From NCBI GenBank assembly GCA_030606485.1, contig JAUWGH010000003.1, positions 210,001-242,000 on the forward strand: DNA of 32,000 nt. Reading direction: 5' to 3'. Origin of the DNA: Promethearchaeota archaeon. GTDB lineage: Archaea; Asgardarchaeota; Lokiarchaeia; Sigyniarchaeales; SOKP01. This document shows, one piece after another, positions 2,937 through 32,000 of the stretch. Each line of letters starts with the position of its first letter. Position 1 is the first letter of the stretch. The notes under the pieces are model-generated. The model had not been told where the DNA came from. It was given only the letters and a program-made list of their open reading frames with translations, and did not search any database. The translations under genes were made by a program, and so were the position numbers.

Positions 2937-4274
2937 ATGAAAGAAAAATTTAATAATCAGCCATTAAGAGGAATGGCAGACCGTTTCCCTCCTGATATGA
3001 GGGAAGAATATTATATAATTAATAAAATTAGGGATATTTCTAAAAAATATATATATGAAGAATTTGAAACTCCACTTTTAGAACCTATAGAGATTTATGC
3101 TGCAAAATCATCAGACGAGTTAATATATGAGCAATCATTTACTTTTACGAGTAAAGGTGGAGATGAATTAATACTAAGACCAGAATTAACTCCTTCTTTA
3201 GCCCGAATGATATCAAGAAAGAGTCAAGAAATGAAGAAACCCATTCGTTGGTTTAGCGTTCCAACTTGTTATCGCTACGAAAGGCCACAGAGAGGGCGAG
3301 CGAGAGAGTTCAAACAAGTTAATTTTGATATTTTAGGCGAGATTAGTTTATTAGAAGAAGTTGAAATACTTAATATATCTATAGATATTTTTACATCATT
3401 TGGTGCAACAAGTGATCAATTTCAAATATATTATAATAACAGACGTTTAATTGATGCGATTTTTAAATTCATTCTTAAAATTCCTGATACCTTTTATATG
3501 AAAGTTTATAAGACACTTGATAAATCTGATAAAATGGAAGATGAGGAATACCAAAAATACTTGATGGATACTTTTAACGATGATAAATTAGTAAAGAATA
3601 TTTTACAATTAAATGAGATTAATGATATTGAGAATTTACCTTATGATAACATTCCAAATGAATTTTATAATTCTCAGGGATATAAAGAAATAAAACAGTT
3701 GCAAAAATTATTAAAAGAAACAAATTTGGAAGAATATTGCACCTTTTCAGCTGGTGTAGTAAGAGGTTTAGATTATTACACAGGAACTGTTTATGAAGTA
3801 TATGATATGGGAGAAGAAAATAGAAGGGCTATTTTTGGTGGTGGTAGGTATGATGATTTATTAACTTTATTTTCCAATGAACAGATATCTGGGATTGGTT
3901 TTGGAATGGGACTCTTATCATTTAAATTGTTTTTACGAACCTATAAGCTGATTCCAGAGAATGTAAAAGAGTTAGATTATTCAAATATTATTTATATAAC
4001 AACGTTTAATGAGAAACTTGCTCCTTTAAGCATTAAATTATCTCAAAAACTTAGAAAAATGGGTTTTGAATGTCTTATTGACTATTCTTGTGGAAAGTTG
4101 GGAAATCAAATAAGCAAAGCTAATGAATTAAATTGTAAAGCAGTTGTAATAATTGGACCAAAAGAACAGGAAGAAAAATCAGTAACTATTAAAAATTTGC
4201 TCACTAATACTCAAAAAACACCAAAATTAAAAGATTTAAATGTAAAAGTTTTAGAAGATATACTTAAAAAGTGA
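2937..4274 (+). CDS. hisS: Histidyl-tRNA synthetase
   Basis: RGMAD, LRPELTPSLAR, YRYERPQRGRAREF, RGLDYYTGTVYE, GGGRYD and GFGMG motifs, plus a C-terminal anticodon-binding domain. Confidence 0.97.
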   Translation: MKEKFNNQPLRGMADRFPPDMREEYYIINKIRDISKKYIYEEFETPLLEPIEIYAAKSSDELIYEQSFTFTSKGGDELILRPELTPSLARMISRKSQEMKKPIRWFSVPTCYRYERPQRGRAREFKQVNFDILGEISLLEEVEILNISIDIFTSFGATSDQFQIYYNNRRLIDAIFKFILKIPDTFYMKVYKTLDKSDKMEDEEYQKYLMDTFNDDKLVKNILQLNEINDIENLPYDNIPNEFYNSQGYKEIKQLQKLLKETNLEEYCTFSAGVVRGLDYYTGTVYEVYDMGEENRRAIFGGGRYDDLLTLFSNEQISGIGFGMGLLSFKLFLRTYKLIPENVKELDYSNIIYITTFNEKLAPLSIKLSQKLRKMGFECLIDYSCGKLGNQISKANELNCKAVVIIGPKEQEEKSVTIKNLLTNTQKTPKLKDLNVKVLEDILKK

Positions 4275-5270: not shown

Positions 5271-5660
5271 TTATATTTCTCCCATTAATGGTGCAATTAT
5301 TGACATTGCGACTGTAATAGGAATTATTAATAAAACCGTAATAAAAATTGCCTTTTTAATTCCGGTGTCATGGAAAATATTAATCATATTTGTCACAATG
5401 AATGTAGCTAGAGCTGCTAACCCAAGAATTGGAACAATACTAAAACCTCTCATTTCAATAAACATTAATTGCATCATGATAAACATGATTGTTCCCAAAT
5501 AAATGAGATAATATATTAAAACTTGCTTCATACCCGTCTTTTTTTCCGCTTTAACGATAACCAATCCCACCTTTAATAATAATATTCCAATCAATGAAGC
5601 CACTGATATTATCACTATTTGGATAATCATTTCAACAGGAATTCCATTTTGAAATAACAT
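5271..5660 (-). CDS. Hypothetical small membrane protein (about 4 TM helices)
   Basis: 129-aa hydrophobic ORF with RBS-like AGGTA 5 nt before the ATG. Confidence 0.65.
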   Translation of the reverse strand: MLFQNGIPVEMIIQIVIISVASLIGILLLKVGLVIVKAEKKTGMKQVLIYYLIYLGTIMFIMMQLMFIEMRGFSIVPILGLAALATFIVTNMINIFHDTGIKKAIFITVLLIIPITVAMSIIAPLMGEI

Positions 5661-5718
5661 ATCAATACCTTATTGTAAAAAGTAATTTATTTATAATTTT
5701 GTTTATATTTTTACAGAT

Positions 5719-5730
5719 AAAAGATTTAAA
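5719..5730 (+). promoter_or_regulatory. Putative BRE/TATA promoter of hdrA-mvhD
   Basis: AAAAGATTTAAA about 105 nt upstream of the ATG at 5837. Confidence 0.4.
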
Positions 5731-5836
5731 GTTAAATTTAATTTATCTAACTTAATTATAATTAATCAAAAATAATACACTTTAATAAATTTGGAGGAAT
5801 ATTTTAAAAGGAAAAATAAAAATTAAGGTCATTGGA

Positions 5837-7801
5837 ATGGAAACTGAAGAAATAAGAATATTTGTAGCAGTATGTCGTTGAGGGATAAATATTGGTGGAT
5901 ACATCGATACAAAAGCTTTAGCTGAATATGCCAAAACATTACCTAATGTTGTAGCATCAAAAGACTATATAAGTATGTGTACTGAAGGTGGTGCAGTATT
6001 TATAAAAGACAACATGGAAGAGGCCAATTGCAATAGACTAATAGTTTGTGCTTGAACCCCTATAACACATGAACCTGTATTTAAGAAGGTTCTGGAAGGA
6101 ATTAATATTGATCCATCTTATTTAGAATTTTGCAATATTAGGGAGCATTCATCATTAGTCCATATGCATGATAAAGAAGGAGCATTAAAGGTGGCAAGAG
6201 ATTTGCTTCGTTCTGCTGTAGCAAGAGCCTTAAAATTAGAAAAAGTTCTAATTAGAGAGGTTGATGTAATCGATAAGATATTAATCATTGGTGGAGGAGT
6301 TGCGGGATTAAAGACTGCTATTGAATTAGCAGATGAGTATTTTGATGTATTTTTAGTAGAAAAAGAACCCACAATTGGTGGGAAGATGGCGATGCTTGAC
6401 AGAACATTCCCTACTGACGATTGTAGCATTTGAATTTTAGGACCTATAATGTTAGATGTTGCCCGAAATGAAAAAATTAGATTATTTACATATTCTGAAG
6501 TAACAGATATCTCAGGATATATAGGGAATTTTTCCGTTGAAATTACAAAAAAGCCAAGATATGTGAAGGATATTTGCAATGGCTGCAGTGCATGTATGGA
6601 TGTTTGCCCCGCGCGTGGTTATAACGAATTTAATCTTGGATTAAATCCTAGACCTGCGATTTACATTAGTTTTCCACAGGCAGTTCCTTCACTTGCCCAA
6701 ATTGATATGGATAAATGCATCAAATGTGGCTTATGCATTGGGGCCTGTGAGTTAGAAGCAATAGATTTTGACCAAAAAGCTGAAAAAATAAATGTAAAAG
6801 TAGGAACAATATCTGTAGCTACTGGTTGGGACGAATATATTCCAGAGGATGGTTACTTAGGATATAATAAATATGATAACGTAATTACTCAATTACAACT
6901 TGAACGAATTTTGGCACCAAATGGACCAACAATGGGCCAACTTGTAAGACCATCTGATGGGAAGGGACCCAAAAGGATTTTATTTATACAATGTGTTGGC
7001 TCACGAGATTTTAATAGAAACGTATATTGTTCAAGTGGAGTATGTTGTATGGTAAGTATAAAGAATTCAAAACTTATTAAACAGCATTACCCAGATGCAG
7101 AGATTACCGTTGCTTACATGGATATACGTGCATCGGGAAAATATTATGAGGAATATTATACTGCTTCTAGAATAGCAGGTGTAAAGTTTTTAAGAACTAA
7201 TATTTCTCGAATTGAAGAGGTTCCTGAAACGAAAAACTTGAGAATTTTCGTCCAAGATACATTAAGAGAATCTTTAGGTGTTCAAGAGATGGAATTTGAT
7301 TTAATTATTTTATCTGCTGCTATGATACCTAATTATGATATATTATCGCTGAATAAAATATTAAAATTGGAAGTTTCTCCTGATGGTTTTTTCAAAGAAA
7401 CACACCCAAGATTAGAACCAATAAATACTAAAATTCCAGGTATATCGCTTGCAGGAGTTTCTCAAGGGCCAAAGTCTATTGCTGAATCGATTATGCAAGC
7501 CGGGGGATCTGCAGCTTCAGCTGGGAAATTAATGATACGCAAAAAATACAAAATAGATCTGATAATTGCAGATGTCGACAAGGAAAAATGTAGCAAATGT
7601 GGATTATGTATATTAAACTGTTCATATAATGCTATTGATATGACGGAAGATGGAGCTGAAGTTGATGATATTAACTGTAGGGGTTGCGGTTCATGCCTTT
7701 CAAATTGTCCAAGTGAAGCAATAACTTTAAGATATTACAGAGAATCACACTATGAAGCCCAAATTGATGCATTATTAAAAGAGTTTGAAGAGGTGGCGTA
7801 G
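5837..7801 (+). CDS. hdrA: Heterodisulfide reductase subunit A-like flavoprotein, 654 aa, with three in-frame UGA (predicted selenocysteine at codons 15, 73 and 199)
   Basis: One reading frame from ATG 5837 to TAG 7801, interrupted only by TGA at 5879, 6053 and 6431. Contexts are VCR-U-GINIGG, VCA-U-TPITHEP and FPTDDCSI-U-ILGP. Also present: IIGGGVAG FAD motif, four ferredoxin CxxCxxCxxxC motifs and QCVGSRD...YCSSGVCC. Confidence 0.93.
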
Positions 7802-7806
7802 AAAGA

Positions 7807-8223
7807 ATGGAAAATTTAAAAATTCTGGCTTTTCTTTGTTTGAAATGAGGATATGGGGCAGCTGATATGGCTGGGACGATTCGAGCACAATATCCTACCA
7901 CAATTAGACCAATTAGGGTAAACTGTACAGCAAGAGTAACTCCAAGCTTAATCATGAGATCAATTGGTAATGGAGCCGATGGTGTTTTAGTAGTTGGATG
8001 ATATCCAGGTGAATGTGATTATGAAATTGGGAATAAAATTGCTTTAAAAAATGTGGAATACGTGCAAGAAATATTAGAAGTTATTGGTTTTAGCCCAGAG
8101 AGAGTATTTATGGAGTATTGTAGCTCAGCGGAAGGAGATAAATTCCAAAAAACTGCAATAATAACTTCGGAAAAGATTAATAAGCTTGGAAAAAGTCCCC
8201 TCAACAAATTAAAAACCGAATAG
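7807..8223 (+). CDS. mvhD: MvhD/VhuD (FlpD) [2Fe-2S] hydrogenase delta subunit, 138 aa, with two in-frame UGA (predicted Sec14 and Sec65); absent from the ORF track
   Basis: Manual translation: MENLKILAFLCLK-U-GYGAADMAGTIRAQYPTTIRPIRVNCTARVT...GADGVLVVG-U-YPGECDYEIGN...YCSSAEGDKF...LGKSPL. TGA at 7846 and 7999, stop TAG at 8221-8223. Confidence 0.93.
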
Positions 8224-8250
8224 AATGAATAATATGAATAAATTTTAGTC

Positions 8251-8290
8251 GTATTATGACTTCCTATCGCAATAGGATTCGGAATTATAC
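8251..8290 (+). promoter_or_regulatory. Candidate eukaryote-like (Loki-type) SECIS element 1 in the 3' UTR of hdrA-mvhD
   Basis: GTAT/ATAC lower helix, AUGA at 8256-8259 and GA at 8282-8283 (22 nt apart), C-G pair next to the core, and an upper hairpin TCCTAT-cgca-ATAGGA. Confidence 0.65.
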
Positions 8291-8357
8291 TTTTTTAATT
8301 TTTATATGGAAATATTTAAAAAAACTTAATCAAAATTTGCTTTTCTATTAAAATTCA

Positions 8358-8399
8358 AATATTATGACTTTTTATAAAATTTAAAAAATGAAATTTTTT
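8358..8399 (+). promoter_or_regulatory. Candidate SECIS element 2
   Basis: Repeats the 11-mer TATTATGACTT of element 1. AUGA at 8364-8367 and GA at 8390-8391 have the same 22-nt spacing. The stem is AU-only (TTTTT/AAAAA), so it is weaker. Confidence 0.45.
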
Positions 8400-8436
8400 A
8401 TTTTTTAATAATTTATTCAATCAGCAGAGATTTCCC

Positions 8437-9759
8437 ATGAAAGAGAGAGATAAACAAAATTTAATCGAATCTGCAAATAAAAAATTAAATAAAGCAGAAA
8501 GATTTTTCGAAATTGAGAATTATAATAAAGCCGCGAAACATTTCAAAAAAGCTGGAGAAGATTTCTTTAAAGTTGGGGAATATGATGCTGCTGAAAAAAT
8601 CTTTTCAATGGTAAGCAAATCTTATGAATACAGCCAAGAATATGAGAACATATCAGATTATTACAGGAAAGCAGCCAATGCCAGTTTAATGATAGATGAG
8701 TTTAATAAGGCAGGGCAAAGTTTTCAATTAGCGGCAAAATATGCTTTAAAGAAAGAAAGGTGCAAAGATCGAGATTTTAATGCATTGGTTTGTAGTAGTT
8801 TTTCATATTTCTGTTTTTTTTTATTGGGACGACAAGATAAAGGGTTAACATATATAAAATCAATAAAAGTCAAGGTGGATATGGATTCTTTTAGAGAGAA
8901 CATATTAACTCAACTAATAAAAAACATAACAACTGCAATCATTGAGAAAAATATTGAATCCCTGGAGGAAATTGAAAATAACCTAGAGAAATACAAATTT
9001 AGAAGGGGAGAATTACGATTAATAAAATTTGTATTACTTTTAGCTTATACTAATATTTCAATAAAAAATCAGCTAAATTTTAAAAAGGATAATTTCACAA
9101 CTGATGAAAAAATTGATTGTTCTCTTGATATTAATACAAAACCTTTACTTAATTTGACAGAAGATAAAGGTTTGAATTTTGAAATCAAAAAACTAACTTT
9201 TAATAATATAAGAATTACCGCTTCAAATAATTTATCAATAATAAGAAGGCCACAATTACCAATCGAATTGAATAAAGGAGAAAAAATGAATTTAAAGTTT
9301 AAGGCCGTTTCAAATTTTCCTGATCCAAAATCATTTTTTGGGCCAATATTAATAACTTCAAAAATAAATGAACTTTTAACATTTTATATAAAATCAAAAA
9401 TACAACATTTAAAGATTAGTTCTCCTCCTACGCAACTTGGAGTTTATTTTAAAAATTTAAGACCTCCATTAATAAATCAAACTTTTCCAATGGAGATAAC
9501 CGTTTCTAATAAAAGCACTGGAGAAGCTTTAGAAATTGAAATTGAACTAGAATTCCCTAAGGAATTAAAAGTTATGCGCGGGACAACTAAAAAACAATTA
9601 TATTCAATCAGACCAAATGAAGAGATAAGATGGGAAATTCAAGTTAAGCCACTTGAACCAGGTGAATTTGATATAAATACTACAGTAAAATATAATGATA
9701 GTGATAATAACATTATTGGTCCAAAATCAAAAGCATATCCAATAAAAATAAAGTTATAA
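8437..9759 (+). CDS. Hypothetical protein: N-terminal SNAP/TPR-like helical repeats plus two C-terminal beta-sandwich (Ig/CARDB-like) domains
   Basis: Repeated A..F.KA/Y.KAA helical units in the first ~200 aa. The last ~230 aa have alternating beta-strand patterns (FPMEITVSN, EIELEFP, WEIQVKP, FDINTTVKY). Confidence 0.7.
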   Translation: MKERDKQNLIESANKKLNKAERFFEIENYNKAAKHFKKAGEDFFKVGEYDAAEKIFSMVSKSYEYSQEYENISDYYRKAANASLMIDEFNKAGQSFQLAAKYALKKERCKDRDFNALVCSSFSYFCFFLLGRQDKGLTYIKSIKVKVDMDSFRENILTQLIKNITTAIIEKNIESLEEIENNLEKYKFRRGELRLIKFVLLLAYTNISIKNQLNFKKDNFTTDEKIDCSLDINTKPLLNLTEDKGLNFEIKKLTFNNIRITASNNLSIIRRPQLPIELNKGEKMNLKFKAVSNFPDPKSFFGPILITSKINELLTFYIKSKIQHLKISSPPTQLGVYFKNLRPPLINQTFPMEITVSNKSTGEALEIEIELEFPKELKVMRGTTKKQLYSIRPNEEIRWEIQVKPLEPGEFDINTTVKYNDSDNNIIGPKSKAYPIKIKL

Positions 9760-30762: not shown

Positions 30763-31500
30763 ATGGTTAAATTAATTTATCATGGTTGTATAAACTTAAG
30801 CAAATTACCAAATCTATGTGAAGCGGGAACAGAATTAATCAAATTTCTTGAGCCAGAATATCAAGAGTTAGAAGACCCTCCTTGTTGTGGCTCATTATTA
30901 TTTCATACTGACGAGGAGGGGGCAAGAAAGAATTGTAATGAGGTCTATGATTGGTTAAAAAAGAATAATGTAACAGAATTAACAACTATTTGTGCGGGGT
31001 GTTATAATTATTTTGTAACGTTTTATCCACAATATATACCTGAATTTGATGTTAAAATAAATCACATATCACAGTTTCTTTCGAAACCAGAATATATGCA
31101 AATGCTTGATTTGAAATATCCCGGAGAAAAGAAAATAAAAATAACATATCATGATCCATGCCATATGAAAAATGCTCGGATTCCAATATTCGAAGAACCA
31201 AGAGTAATACTAAGTAATATAAAGAATGTTGATTTAATGGCTCTTGAGTGGGAGAGAGAATTATCAACTTGTTGCGGAGCAGGAGCTGGGGTATATTCTT
31301 CGTTTAAGGAGGTCAGTAATTTTACTACAGCAGATATTTTTAGGCAAGTTAAAAAGTCAAGAGCTAAAATTCTTATTACTCCATGTAGCTTTTGCTATGT
31401 ATCGTTTAAAAGACTTGAATCAGAAAAAAATCCACGATTTAAAATATTAAAACTTGAGGAATTCATAAATAAATTGAAAAAAGGAGAGGTGATTGAATAA
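30763..31500 (+). CDS. Two-CCG-domain Fe-S protein (LutA/YkgE/GlcF-like)
   Basis: PPCCG, TICAGC, YHDPCH, TCCGAGAG and PCSFC motifs; coupled to a LutB-like gene. Confidence 0.85.
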   Translation: MVKLIYHGCINLSKLPNLCEAGTELIKFLEPEYQELEDPPCCGSLLFHTDEEGARKNCNEVYDWLKKNNVTELTTICAGCYNYFVTFYPQYIPEFDVKINHISQFLSKPEYMQMLDLKYPGEKKIKITYHDPCHMKNARIPIFEEPRVILSNIKNVDLMALEWERELSTCCGAGAGVYSSFKEVSNFTTADIFRQVKKSRAKILITPCSFCYVSFKRLESEKNPRFKILKLEEFINKLKKGEVIE

Positions 31501-32000
31501 TGACATCAGGAAAAGAATTATATGAAAATAATAAGGAAAAACTTAAGAAACTTCTTGATGAAACGAGCGAAGAGTATCAATTTGCTGATTTTTGGGGTAA
31601 TCTTGCATCAGTTAAAAAGCACCGAGAATTTGATGAGGATACTAAAGAATATGTTGATAAATATGTAGATAAATTAAGACCAATGAGAGAAGAATTAGTA
31701 AATAATCTTGAAAAATATACTGAACAAGCAATGAAATCAATAGAAAAAACTGGCGCCAAAGTTTATCTAGCTAAGACTAATGAGCAAGCTCAAAAATTAT
31801 TTTTACAAGAATTAGGAGATGAACGAACTCTATATAAATCAAAAAGTGCAGATGCAAAAGAAATGGGCATTTTAGATGCTTGTAAAAAAAATGGAATAGA
31901 GGTTATCGAAACAGACCTTGGAGATGTTTTGGTGCAAATGTTTGAATATGAACTGCCATCATATCAATTAGCACCGGGAGTGCATTTTCACCCTAGTCAA
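31500..32000 (+). CDS. LutB/YkgF-like LUD-domain protein (5' part, runs off the window); absent from the ORF track
   Basis: ATG at 31500 overlaps the upstream TAA, with RBS GGAGAGGTGA. Translation includes YKSKSADAKEMG...IEVIETDLGDVLVQM...PSYQLAPGVH, matching the LutB KSKS...ETDLGE...P.H..APA.H pattern. Confidence 0.8.
   Translation, partial: MTSGKELYENNKEKLKKLLDETSEEYQFADFWGNLASVKKHREFDEDTKEYVDKYVDKLRPMREELVNNLEKYTEQAMKSIEKTGAKVYLAKTNEQAQKLFLQELGDERTLYKSKSADAKEMGILDACKKNGIEVIETDLGDVLVQMFEYELPSYQLAPGVHFHPSQ

Follow-up and report, generated by a model that had tools for sequence, protein, structure and literature searches.

Forms of HdrA (heterodisulfide reductase subunit A) with several selenocysteine (Sec) residues are known from Lokiarchaeota through Mariotti et al. 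2016 (PMC4989117), who located Sec at five possible positions of the protein, all of them on conserved Cys and with the canonical position always included. In that report HdrA and VhuD form an invariable tandem, and a single Sec insertion sequence (SECIS) element, the lokiSECIS, lies 3' of vhuD and serves as many as six UGA codons spread across some 2 kb. Huang, Xiao and Zhang 2024 (PMC11227280) subsequently catalogued 1439 Asgard selenoproteins, with Sec written as X in their supplementary FASTA. Here we analyse a stretch of 32,000 nucleotides (positions 210,001 to 242,000 of contig JAUWGH010000003.1, assembly GCA_030606485.1; hereafter the window) from a Promethearchaeia (Lokiarchaeia) metagenome-assembled genome, which carries an hdrA gene interrupted by three in-frame TGA codons and, directly behind it, a vhuD gene with two more. 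We hold with high confidence that the two genes form a selenoprotein operon, belonging to a Lokiarchaeial inhabitant of marine or cold-seep sediment, in which five UGA codons (HdrA 15, 73 and 199; VhuD 14 and 65) are read as Sec by means of one shared SECIS. A preliminary description of the window had arrived at a tri-selenocysteine HdrA and had pointed to a reported Sec-containing HdrA with a eukaryote-like SECIS in Lokiarchaeota, which the 2016 paper bears out. That description had the hdrA feature right and missed the downstream vhuD with its two TGA and the shared SECIS, and it is these that explain how recoding works.

With TGA taken as sense, positions 5837–7801 of the plus strand translate into 654 residues followed by a TAG stop, so that the single HdrA frame proposed earlier, with TGA at 5879, 6053 and 6431, is confirmed. 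The only in-frame stops are the TGA at codons 15, 73 and 199, and the gene contains no frameshift. Open reading frame (ORF) calling with table 11 breaks it into pieces that include 6164–6433 and 6449–7801, the latter being an ATG-started ORF of 450 amino acids internal to hdrA. The features of the gene are as follows.

5837..7801, plus strand: hdrA coding sequence, 654 codons plus TAG, with near-full-length matches to solved HdrA structures
hdrA domains, in order: N-terminal Fe-S domain; FAD/thioredoxin-reductase-like domain; inserted and C-terminal 2x[4Fe-4S] ferredoxin domains
5879..5881, plus strand: UGA, proposed Sec15, motif C-R-U-G-I-N-I, at the second Cys column of the N-terminal domain
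6053..6055, plus strand: UGA, proposed Sec73, motif C-A-U-T-P, at the fourth Cys column of the N-terminal domain
6431..6433, plus strand: UGA, proposed Sec199, D-D-C-S-I-U-I-L, the canonical HdrA Sec site, equivalent to Methanococcus Sec197

Judged from its translation, 5837–7801 encodes HdrA. The product aligns to the solved chain 9sfi_A over residues 7–648 with an E-value of 2e-200, and to 5odc_A and 8rvu_a with E-values of 9e-197 and 1.6e-190, respectively. Pfam places Pyr_redox_2/FAD_binding at residues 147–195 and Fer4 families at 239–309 and 578–631, so that both features by which HdrA is recognized, the FAD-binding Rossmann motif and two 2x[4Fe-4S] domains, are present. Every Cys/Sec column that is conserved among orthologs is kept. 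In 9sfi_A, a Methanococcus chain, Cys stands opposite residues 15 and 73 and X (Sec) opposite residue 199, in agreement with the earlier assignment of the third UGA to the Sec site of Methanococcales.

The start codon of vhuD follows 5 nt past the hdrA stop.

7807..8223, plus strand: vhuD/mvhD coding sequence, 138 codons plus TAG stop
7846..7848, plus strand: UGA, proposed VhuD Sec14, C-L-K-U-G-Y
7999..8001, plus strand: UGA, proposed VhuD Sec65, V-V-G-U-Y-P-G-E-C, 51 codons past Sec14

The protein matches the Pfam family FlpD (PF02662) with 141 bits, and its predicted model (pLDDT 86.5) was matched by Foldseek to the MvhD chain 5odc_D with an E-value of 4e-10 and 47% identity. The three traits that together characterize the VhuD family are thus all found here, namely the FlpD domain, an MvhD fold and a pair of Sec some 50 codons from each other, and the Sec residues occupy two of the five conserved Cys columns of VhuD. 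The motif C-x-K-U-G-Y is present in 24/24 vhuD orthologs in which it was located, and the spacing of 51 residues between the two Sec is retained in the orthologs in which both were found. Comparison of the HdrA N-terminal domain with VhuD gave weak matches by BLASTP (E 0.72) and by hhalign (Prob 4.8%, E 0.008). The weak hhalign pairing brings all four Cys/Sec columns into register, HdrA 13, 15, 48 and 73 with VhuD 11, 14, 40 and 65, respectively. When the VhuD model was compared with structures (Foldseek, VIA-align), no HdrA chain was among the matches listed.

One base past the vhuD stop lies an element with every published characteristic of a type I lokiSECIS, namely AUGA ahead of a 9-bp stem, an apical loop of 11 nt whose first part is rich in A and whose last base is G (mostly within AG), and GA behind the stem (Mariotti et al. 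2016, PMC4989117).

8225..8259, plus strand: lokiSECIS, AUGA core, 9-bp stem 8229–8237/8249–8257, 11-nt apical loop AUAAAUUUUAG, then GA
8262..8304, plus strand: hairpin 8262–8267/8272–8277 followed by oligo-T at 8291–8296 and 8300–8303, from the sequence and the minimum free energy (MFE) fold

At the DNA level the targeted pattern reads ATGA, a stem with 9/9 pairs, the 11-nt loop ATAAATTTTAG and GA. The element was found by this pattern only, the MFE fold of the entire 3' region being uninformative (z = -0.23). The hairpin and oligo-T tract behind it are likely, from their sequence, to mark the transcript end just past the SECIS. Strict matches to the SECIS pattern number 8 in the 3.75-Mb genome against 1–3 in shuffles; three of the 8 lie 3' of HdrA-VhuD pairs and one 3' of a VhuU-like ORF. 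Among the 28 orthologous loci, 22 show the same geometry; there the element lies no more than about 40 nt from the vhuD stop, or directly precedes or overlaps this stop. The stem sequences vary among these loci, with two-sided (compensatory) changes at 9/9 stem pairs across the 22. A covariance model (R1) built from the alignment of these 22 elements (A1) scores 62.4 bits at 8219–8265; this is its sole match in the 32-kb window, with none other above 13 bits, and the full-model scan gave no SECIS match near hdrA. In a scan of the genome the model also recovers the SECIS of two paralogous operons outside its training set, at 57.6 and 54.2 bits.

The vhuD frames of four relatives (L046, L054, L060 and L061) and of one paralog in the genome itself (contig C10:156110, minus strand) enter the AUGA of the SECIS or hold an extra TGA within their last ~30 codons. 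From this comparison, the terminal TGA of these orthologs and paralogs probably act as stops, with the SECIS too near for recoding; Mariotti et al. 2016 (PMC4989117) proposed that TGA too close to the SECIS escape recoding.

Conservation of the UGA codons was followed in four TGA-bearing HdrA paralogs of the genome, which are 45–51% identical to each other's closest copy, and in a set of 28 HdrA orthologs from 28 related genomes, 57–100% identical. Columns 15, 73 and 199 are Sec in all four TGA-bearing paralogs; in another three paralogs they are Cys. Among the orthologs, column 199 is Sec in all 28 (Cys in none), column 15 is Sec in 18 and Cys in 9, and column 73 is Sec in 7 and Cys in 21. 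Two more columns show the same exchange: column 48, with Sec in 6 and Cys in 22, and column 595, with Sec in 2 and Cys in 26. This is the count of Sec versus Cys that had been proposed as a check, and together with the structure-chain alignment and the paralogs it confirms that each UGA of the window HdrA falls on a conserved Cys position. No TGA occurs at a non-Cys column within the coding sequence of any of the 28 orthologs, so that the stops at non-Cys positions sought in relatives as a sign of decay were absent; the coincidence of TGA with Cys columns is far beyond chance. The hdrA stop is TAA or TAG in 28/28 orthologs, with vhuD close behind, and Mariotti et al. 2016 (PMC4989117) attributed a non-UGA hdrA stop to selection against a stop that the SECIS could recode.

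Further Sec positions were seen within this family. One HdrA paralog of the genome (contig C1:56646–58571, plus strand; L012) has four Sec, the extra one in a ferredoxin CxxCxxC motif at window column 297, and up to 5 TGA occur in a single HdrA among the relatives (G020), some of which have Sec at columns 48 and 595. The presence of Sec at classical [4Fe-4S] ligand positions merits chemical study.

These comparisons bear directly on whether hdrA is a decaying pseudogene whose three TGA are nonsense mutations, a reading that fits the fragmentation of the gene by standard ORF calling. The confinement of TGA to Cys columns, matched in paralogs of 45–51% identity and in many orthologs, speaks against it, as does the ratio of nonsynonymous to synonymous substitution (dN/dS), which against same-genus orthologs is 0.04–0.14 in segments 16–72, 74–198 and 200–654, that is, in the measurable segments on both sides of the UGAs, in a gene free of frameshifts and other stops. 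From this it follows that the sequence between the UGAs is translated. The pseudogene has at best a negligible probability, and the preliminary view that three nonsense mutations would be implausible stands up across the 28 orthologs. Still less credit attaches to errors of sequencing or assembly having turned TGY or TGG codons into TGA, a possibility that had also been suggested as something to look for and in whose favor nothing was found. Contigs from three other studies (X2, X3 and X6) differ from the window at 2–10 positions across the gene, none of them in the five TGA, and the species-representative genomes of relatives have the same codons.

The genome also encodes the machinery for Sec, which the preliminary description had listed for a search (tRNA-Sec, EFSec, SepSecS, SelD and PSTK). 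Part of it forms a cluster.

Contig C2:188523–194265 of the same genome: Sec machinery cluster with SepSecS, tRNA-Sec and EFSec

The tRNA-Sec, found with Rfam, has a UCA anticodon, a 9-bp acceptor stem and an insert of 25 nt after the anticodon loop that is probably an intron. SepSecS (487 bits, above cut-off) directly adjoins it, and EFSec/SelB (264 bits, above cut-off) lies about 3.4 kb from the SepSecS/tRNA-Sec pair. SelD scores 184 bits, above cut-off, and has one in-frame TGA of its own.

Such a dedicated tRNA-Sec and set of Sec pathway genes also argues against a genome-wide reassignment of TGA to Trp, Gly or Cys, in favor of which it can be said that the frame opens when TGA is read as sense. 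In-frame TGA are confined to Cys columns in families already known as selenoproteins, with a SECIS downstream, and of the 22 long ORFs in the window 4 end in TGA, among them the gene for histidyl-tRNA synthetase (2937–4274). A changed code is accordingly about as improbable as the pseudogene, and we regard pseudogene, sequencing error and code change as excluded. The tri-selenocysteine HdrA put forward earlier is supported in turn by column conservation, the Sec machinery and the independent assemblies.

In the mechanism that we propose, both genes would be carried on one bicistronic mRNA, for which the 5-nt gap and the lack of a SECIS or terminator between the genes are the grounds. The eukaryote-like lokiSECIS in the 3' untranslated region would recruit the Sec-specific elongation factor carrying Sec-tRNA(Sec), and this one element would serve UGA codons 226, 379, 1794, 2172 and 2346 nt upstream. 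The hdrA stop would escape recoding because it is TAG.

Several points weigh against this reading of the locus. The tRNA-Sec score of 47.1 bits lies exactly at the Rfam cut-off of 47, and ARAGORN made no call at that locus. The PSTK-like gene reaches 141 bits against an NCBIfam cut-off of 290.5. No SECIS-binding protein is known for the Lokiarchaeota lineage according to Mariotti et al. 2016 (PMC4989117). A search of 5600–8500 against Rfam with E up to 10 gave no SECIS family, only chance matches to miRNA and lncRNA models, and at gathering thresholds the whole window gave no Rfam match. Since standard SECIS tools are reported to miss lokiSECIS (Mariotti et al. 2016, PMC4989117), the absence of a SECIS family from the Rfam results is expected. 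The proportion of paired cells in the SECIS alignment, 91.9% against 36–56% when the 3' partner is slid, is inflated, as the 22 loci were chosen by a filter of at least 7/9 pairs; the compensatory changes and the fixed position of the element are unaffected by that filter. Finally, selenium insertion, co-transcription, the action of the SECIS over 2.3 kb and what each Sec does chemically are inferred here rather than observed, and the first two of these count on the same side.

A more limited form of recoding has to be considered as well, in which the two N-terminal UGAs, separated from the SECIS by over 2.1 kb, would be decoded with low efficiency or as Cys and much of the product would be truncated, or would be started at the ATG at 6449 and so be devoid of the N-terminal domain. 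The distance of 2172–2346 nt makes this conceivable, as action of an archaeal SECIS that far has never been shown by experiment and the range was called unparalleled in Mariotti et al. 2016 (PMC4989117); the ATG-started 450-aa ORF at 6449–7801 and the free exchange of Sec and Cys at columns 15 and 73 among relatives are also in keeping with it. Segments 16–72 and 74–198, however, are under purifying selection as strong as the rest of the protein, which means that they are translated often enough to matter, and none of the 28 orthologs ends hdrA with TGA, which is what action of the SECIS over the whole gene would predict. We consider such partial recoding unlikely, albeit less so than the three readings excluded above.

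Given recoding at all five UGA codons, the positions of the Sec residues can be related to the known structures. Sec199 would be a redox-active Sec paired with Cys196 (C-x-x-U) beside the bifurcating FAD, and two of the four Cys columns that are invariant in the N-terminal [4Fe-4S] domain (13, 15, 48 and 73) would be taken by Sec15 and Sec73. In the crystal structure Cys197 of the partner protomer, the equivalent of Sec199, ligates the N-terminal [4Fe-4S] cluster. The 2026 cryo-EM structure from M. maripaludis (PMC13518236) has Sec197 and a Cys holding a bridging density between that cluster (A3) and FAD, and the [2Fe-2S] cluster that supplies FAD resides in VhuD (PMC13518236). It is tentatively suggested, as the less probable case, that all the Sec residues line one electron-gating path instead of being scattered. 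If three of the four columns 13, 15, 48 and 73 give the other ligands of A3, at least one N-terminal Sec would bind iron, and A3 could have up to three Se ligands. In relatives, Sec is also found at column 48 and, at columns 297 and 595, within CxxCxxC motifs of ferredoxin type. Were this true, there would be a natural family of Sec-ligated iron-sulfur clusters that tune the low-potential branch of flavin-based bifurcation.

Isolate ABR01, with 95% identity, is the closest public relative of the source genome. Metagenomes of cold-seep and marine-sediment origin from nine studies also contain the stretch; one run labelled RNA-Seq (X18) covers only fragments of it and is probably DNA. The neighbors of hdrA-vhuD in the window are of housekeeping type: thiolase, alcohol dehydrogenase-like, HisRS, OMP decarboxylase family and thymidine phosphorylase-like genes, with those for a DNA ligase and a peptide ABC transporter, among others, further along. 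Many CCG-domain genes occur in other parts of the genome, as do two [NiFe] hydrogenase loci, of which one includes a Sec-containing VhuU. The 440-aa ORF 3' of the operon (8437–9759, plus strand) gave only weak, sub-threshold Pfam matches, to the eukaryotic families TRAP-beta and TRAPPC13 C-terminal, with E-values of about 5e-4 to 8e-4, which could be due to chance or to an Ig-like/beta-sandwich domain. On the plus strand, 30763–31997 contains a gene with a CCG domain (HdrB/LutA-like) and, behind it, one with a LUD domain. The two resemble a pair of the lactate-utilisation type and are unrelated to the hdrA-vhuD unit, which lies 23 kb away.

A separate observation concerns an ORF of 51 codons on contig C1 of the genome (355019–355171, minus strand; L141:617–772, minus strand), which has a basic N-terminus, one transmembrane helix and a Pro/Gly tail ending in GGG-U-C. 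A perfect lokiSECIS lies 35 nt 3' of it, and the ORF, its penultimate Sec and the SECIS are conserved in three genomes of the same genus. In a genome of a different genus (G022) there is a similar small membrane ORF that ends in S-U-P-G and has a different SECIS stem sequence. We take the layout to resemble that of eukaryotic SelK/SelS. Among the publications listed by a literature search, none dealt with both Asgard archaea and SelK. The family is absent from the Asgard selenoprotein families listed by Huang et al. 2024 (PMC11227280).

Compared with the Lokiarchaeotal tandem of Mariotti et al. 2016 (PMC4989117), the window agrees in gene order, in the tiny intergenic gap, in the two-Sec VhuD, in the multiple HdrA Sec that include the canonical one, in the lone SECIS 3' of vhuD, in the non-UGA hdrA stop and in the exact geometry of the SECIS. 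There is no difference in kind, the number of UGA being 5 here and up to 6 in that report. The arrangement of a multi-Sec HdrA with VhuD and a shared SECIS has thus been in print for Lokiarchaeia since 2016, and a large-scale catalogue followed in 2024. The preliminary description had left open whether the two N-terminal Sec positions were new; both are already on record, in hundreds of sequences of the supplement of Huang et al. 2024 (PMC11227280), where the motif XGINI occurs 192 times, XGVNI 148, AXTP 115, SXTP 13 and CSIXIL 203. Over the stretches compared, the entries Lokiarchaeia_GCA_023128565_U_4 and GCA_023127985_U_3 are the same as the window HdrA, with X at all three sites, so that a protein matching it in those stretches has already been catalogued with all three Sec. 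The text of that paper does not discuss individual Sec positions and their structural location. It is striking all the same that, in the archaeal lineage nearest to the eukaryotes, a single SECIS of eukaryote-like form should serve five Sec codons in two genes, at distances reaching 2.3 kb. The locus is of value for annotation too, as standard gene callers break hdrA and vhuD and both appear fragmented or absent in such genomes.

With HdrA(U) and VhuD of Methanococcales and Methanopyrus the window proteins share the enzyme family, the canonical Sec (197/199) and the two-Sec VhuD with its spacing of about 50 codons. The methanogen HdrA, in contrast, has one Sec only and Cys at columns 15 and 73, and the methanogen genes each have their own archaeal SECIS of the GAA_A type, whereas the window has one shared lokiSECIS. 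The solved HdrABC-MvhAGD and Hdr-Vhu-Fwd complexes (5ODC; PMC13518236) agree with the window protein in the full-length alignment (E 1e-190 to 2e-200) and in all Fe-S Cys columns. They differ in their setting, since Lokiarchaeia are not known methanogens and the survey of window genes found no hdrBC or hydrogenase gene adjoining the hdrA-vhuD pair. The comparison raises the chemical question of why Sec and Cys swap freely at Fe-S ligand columns and whether Sec binds iron. The proposed convergence of Sec on A3 and the gating path, with possible binding of iron, is the sole idea offered here that would go beyond published work.

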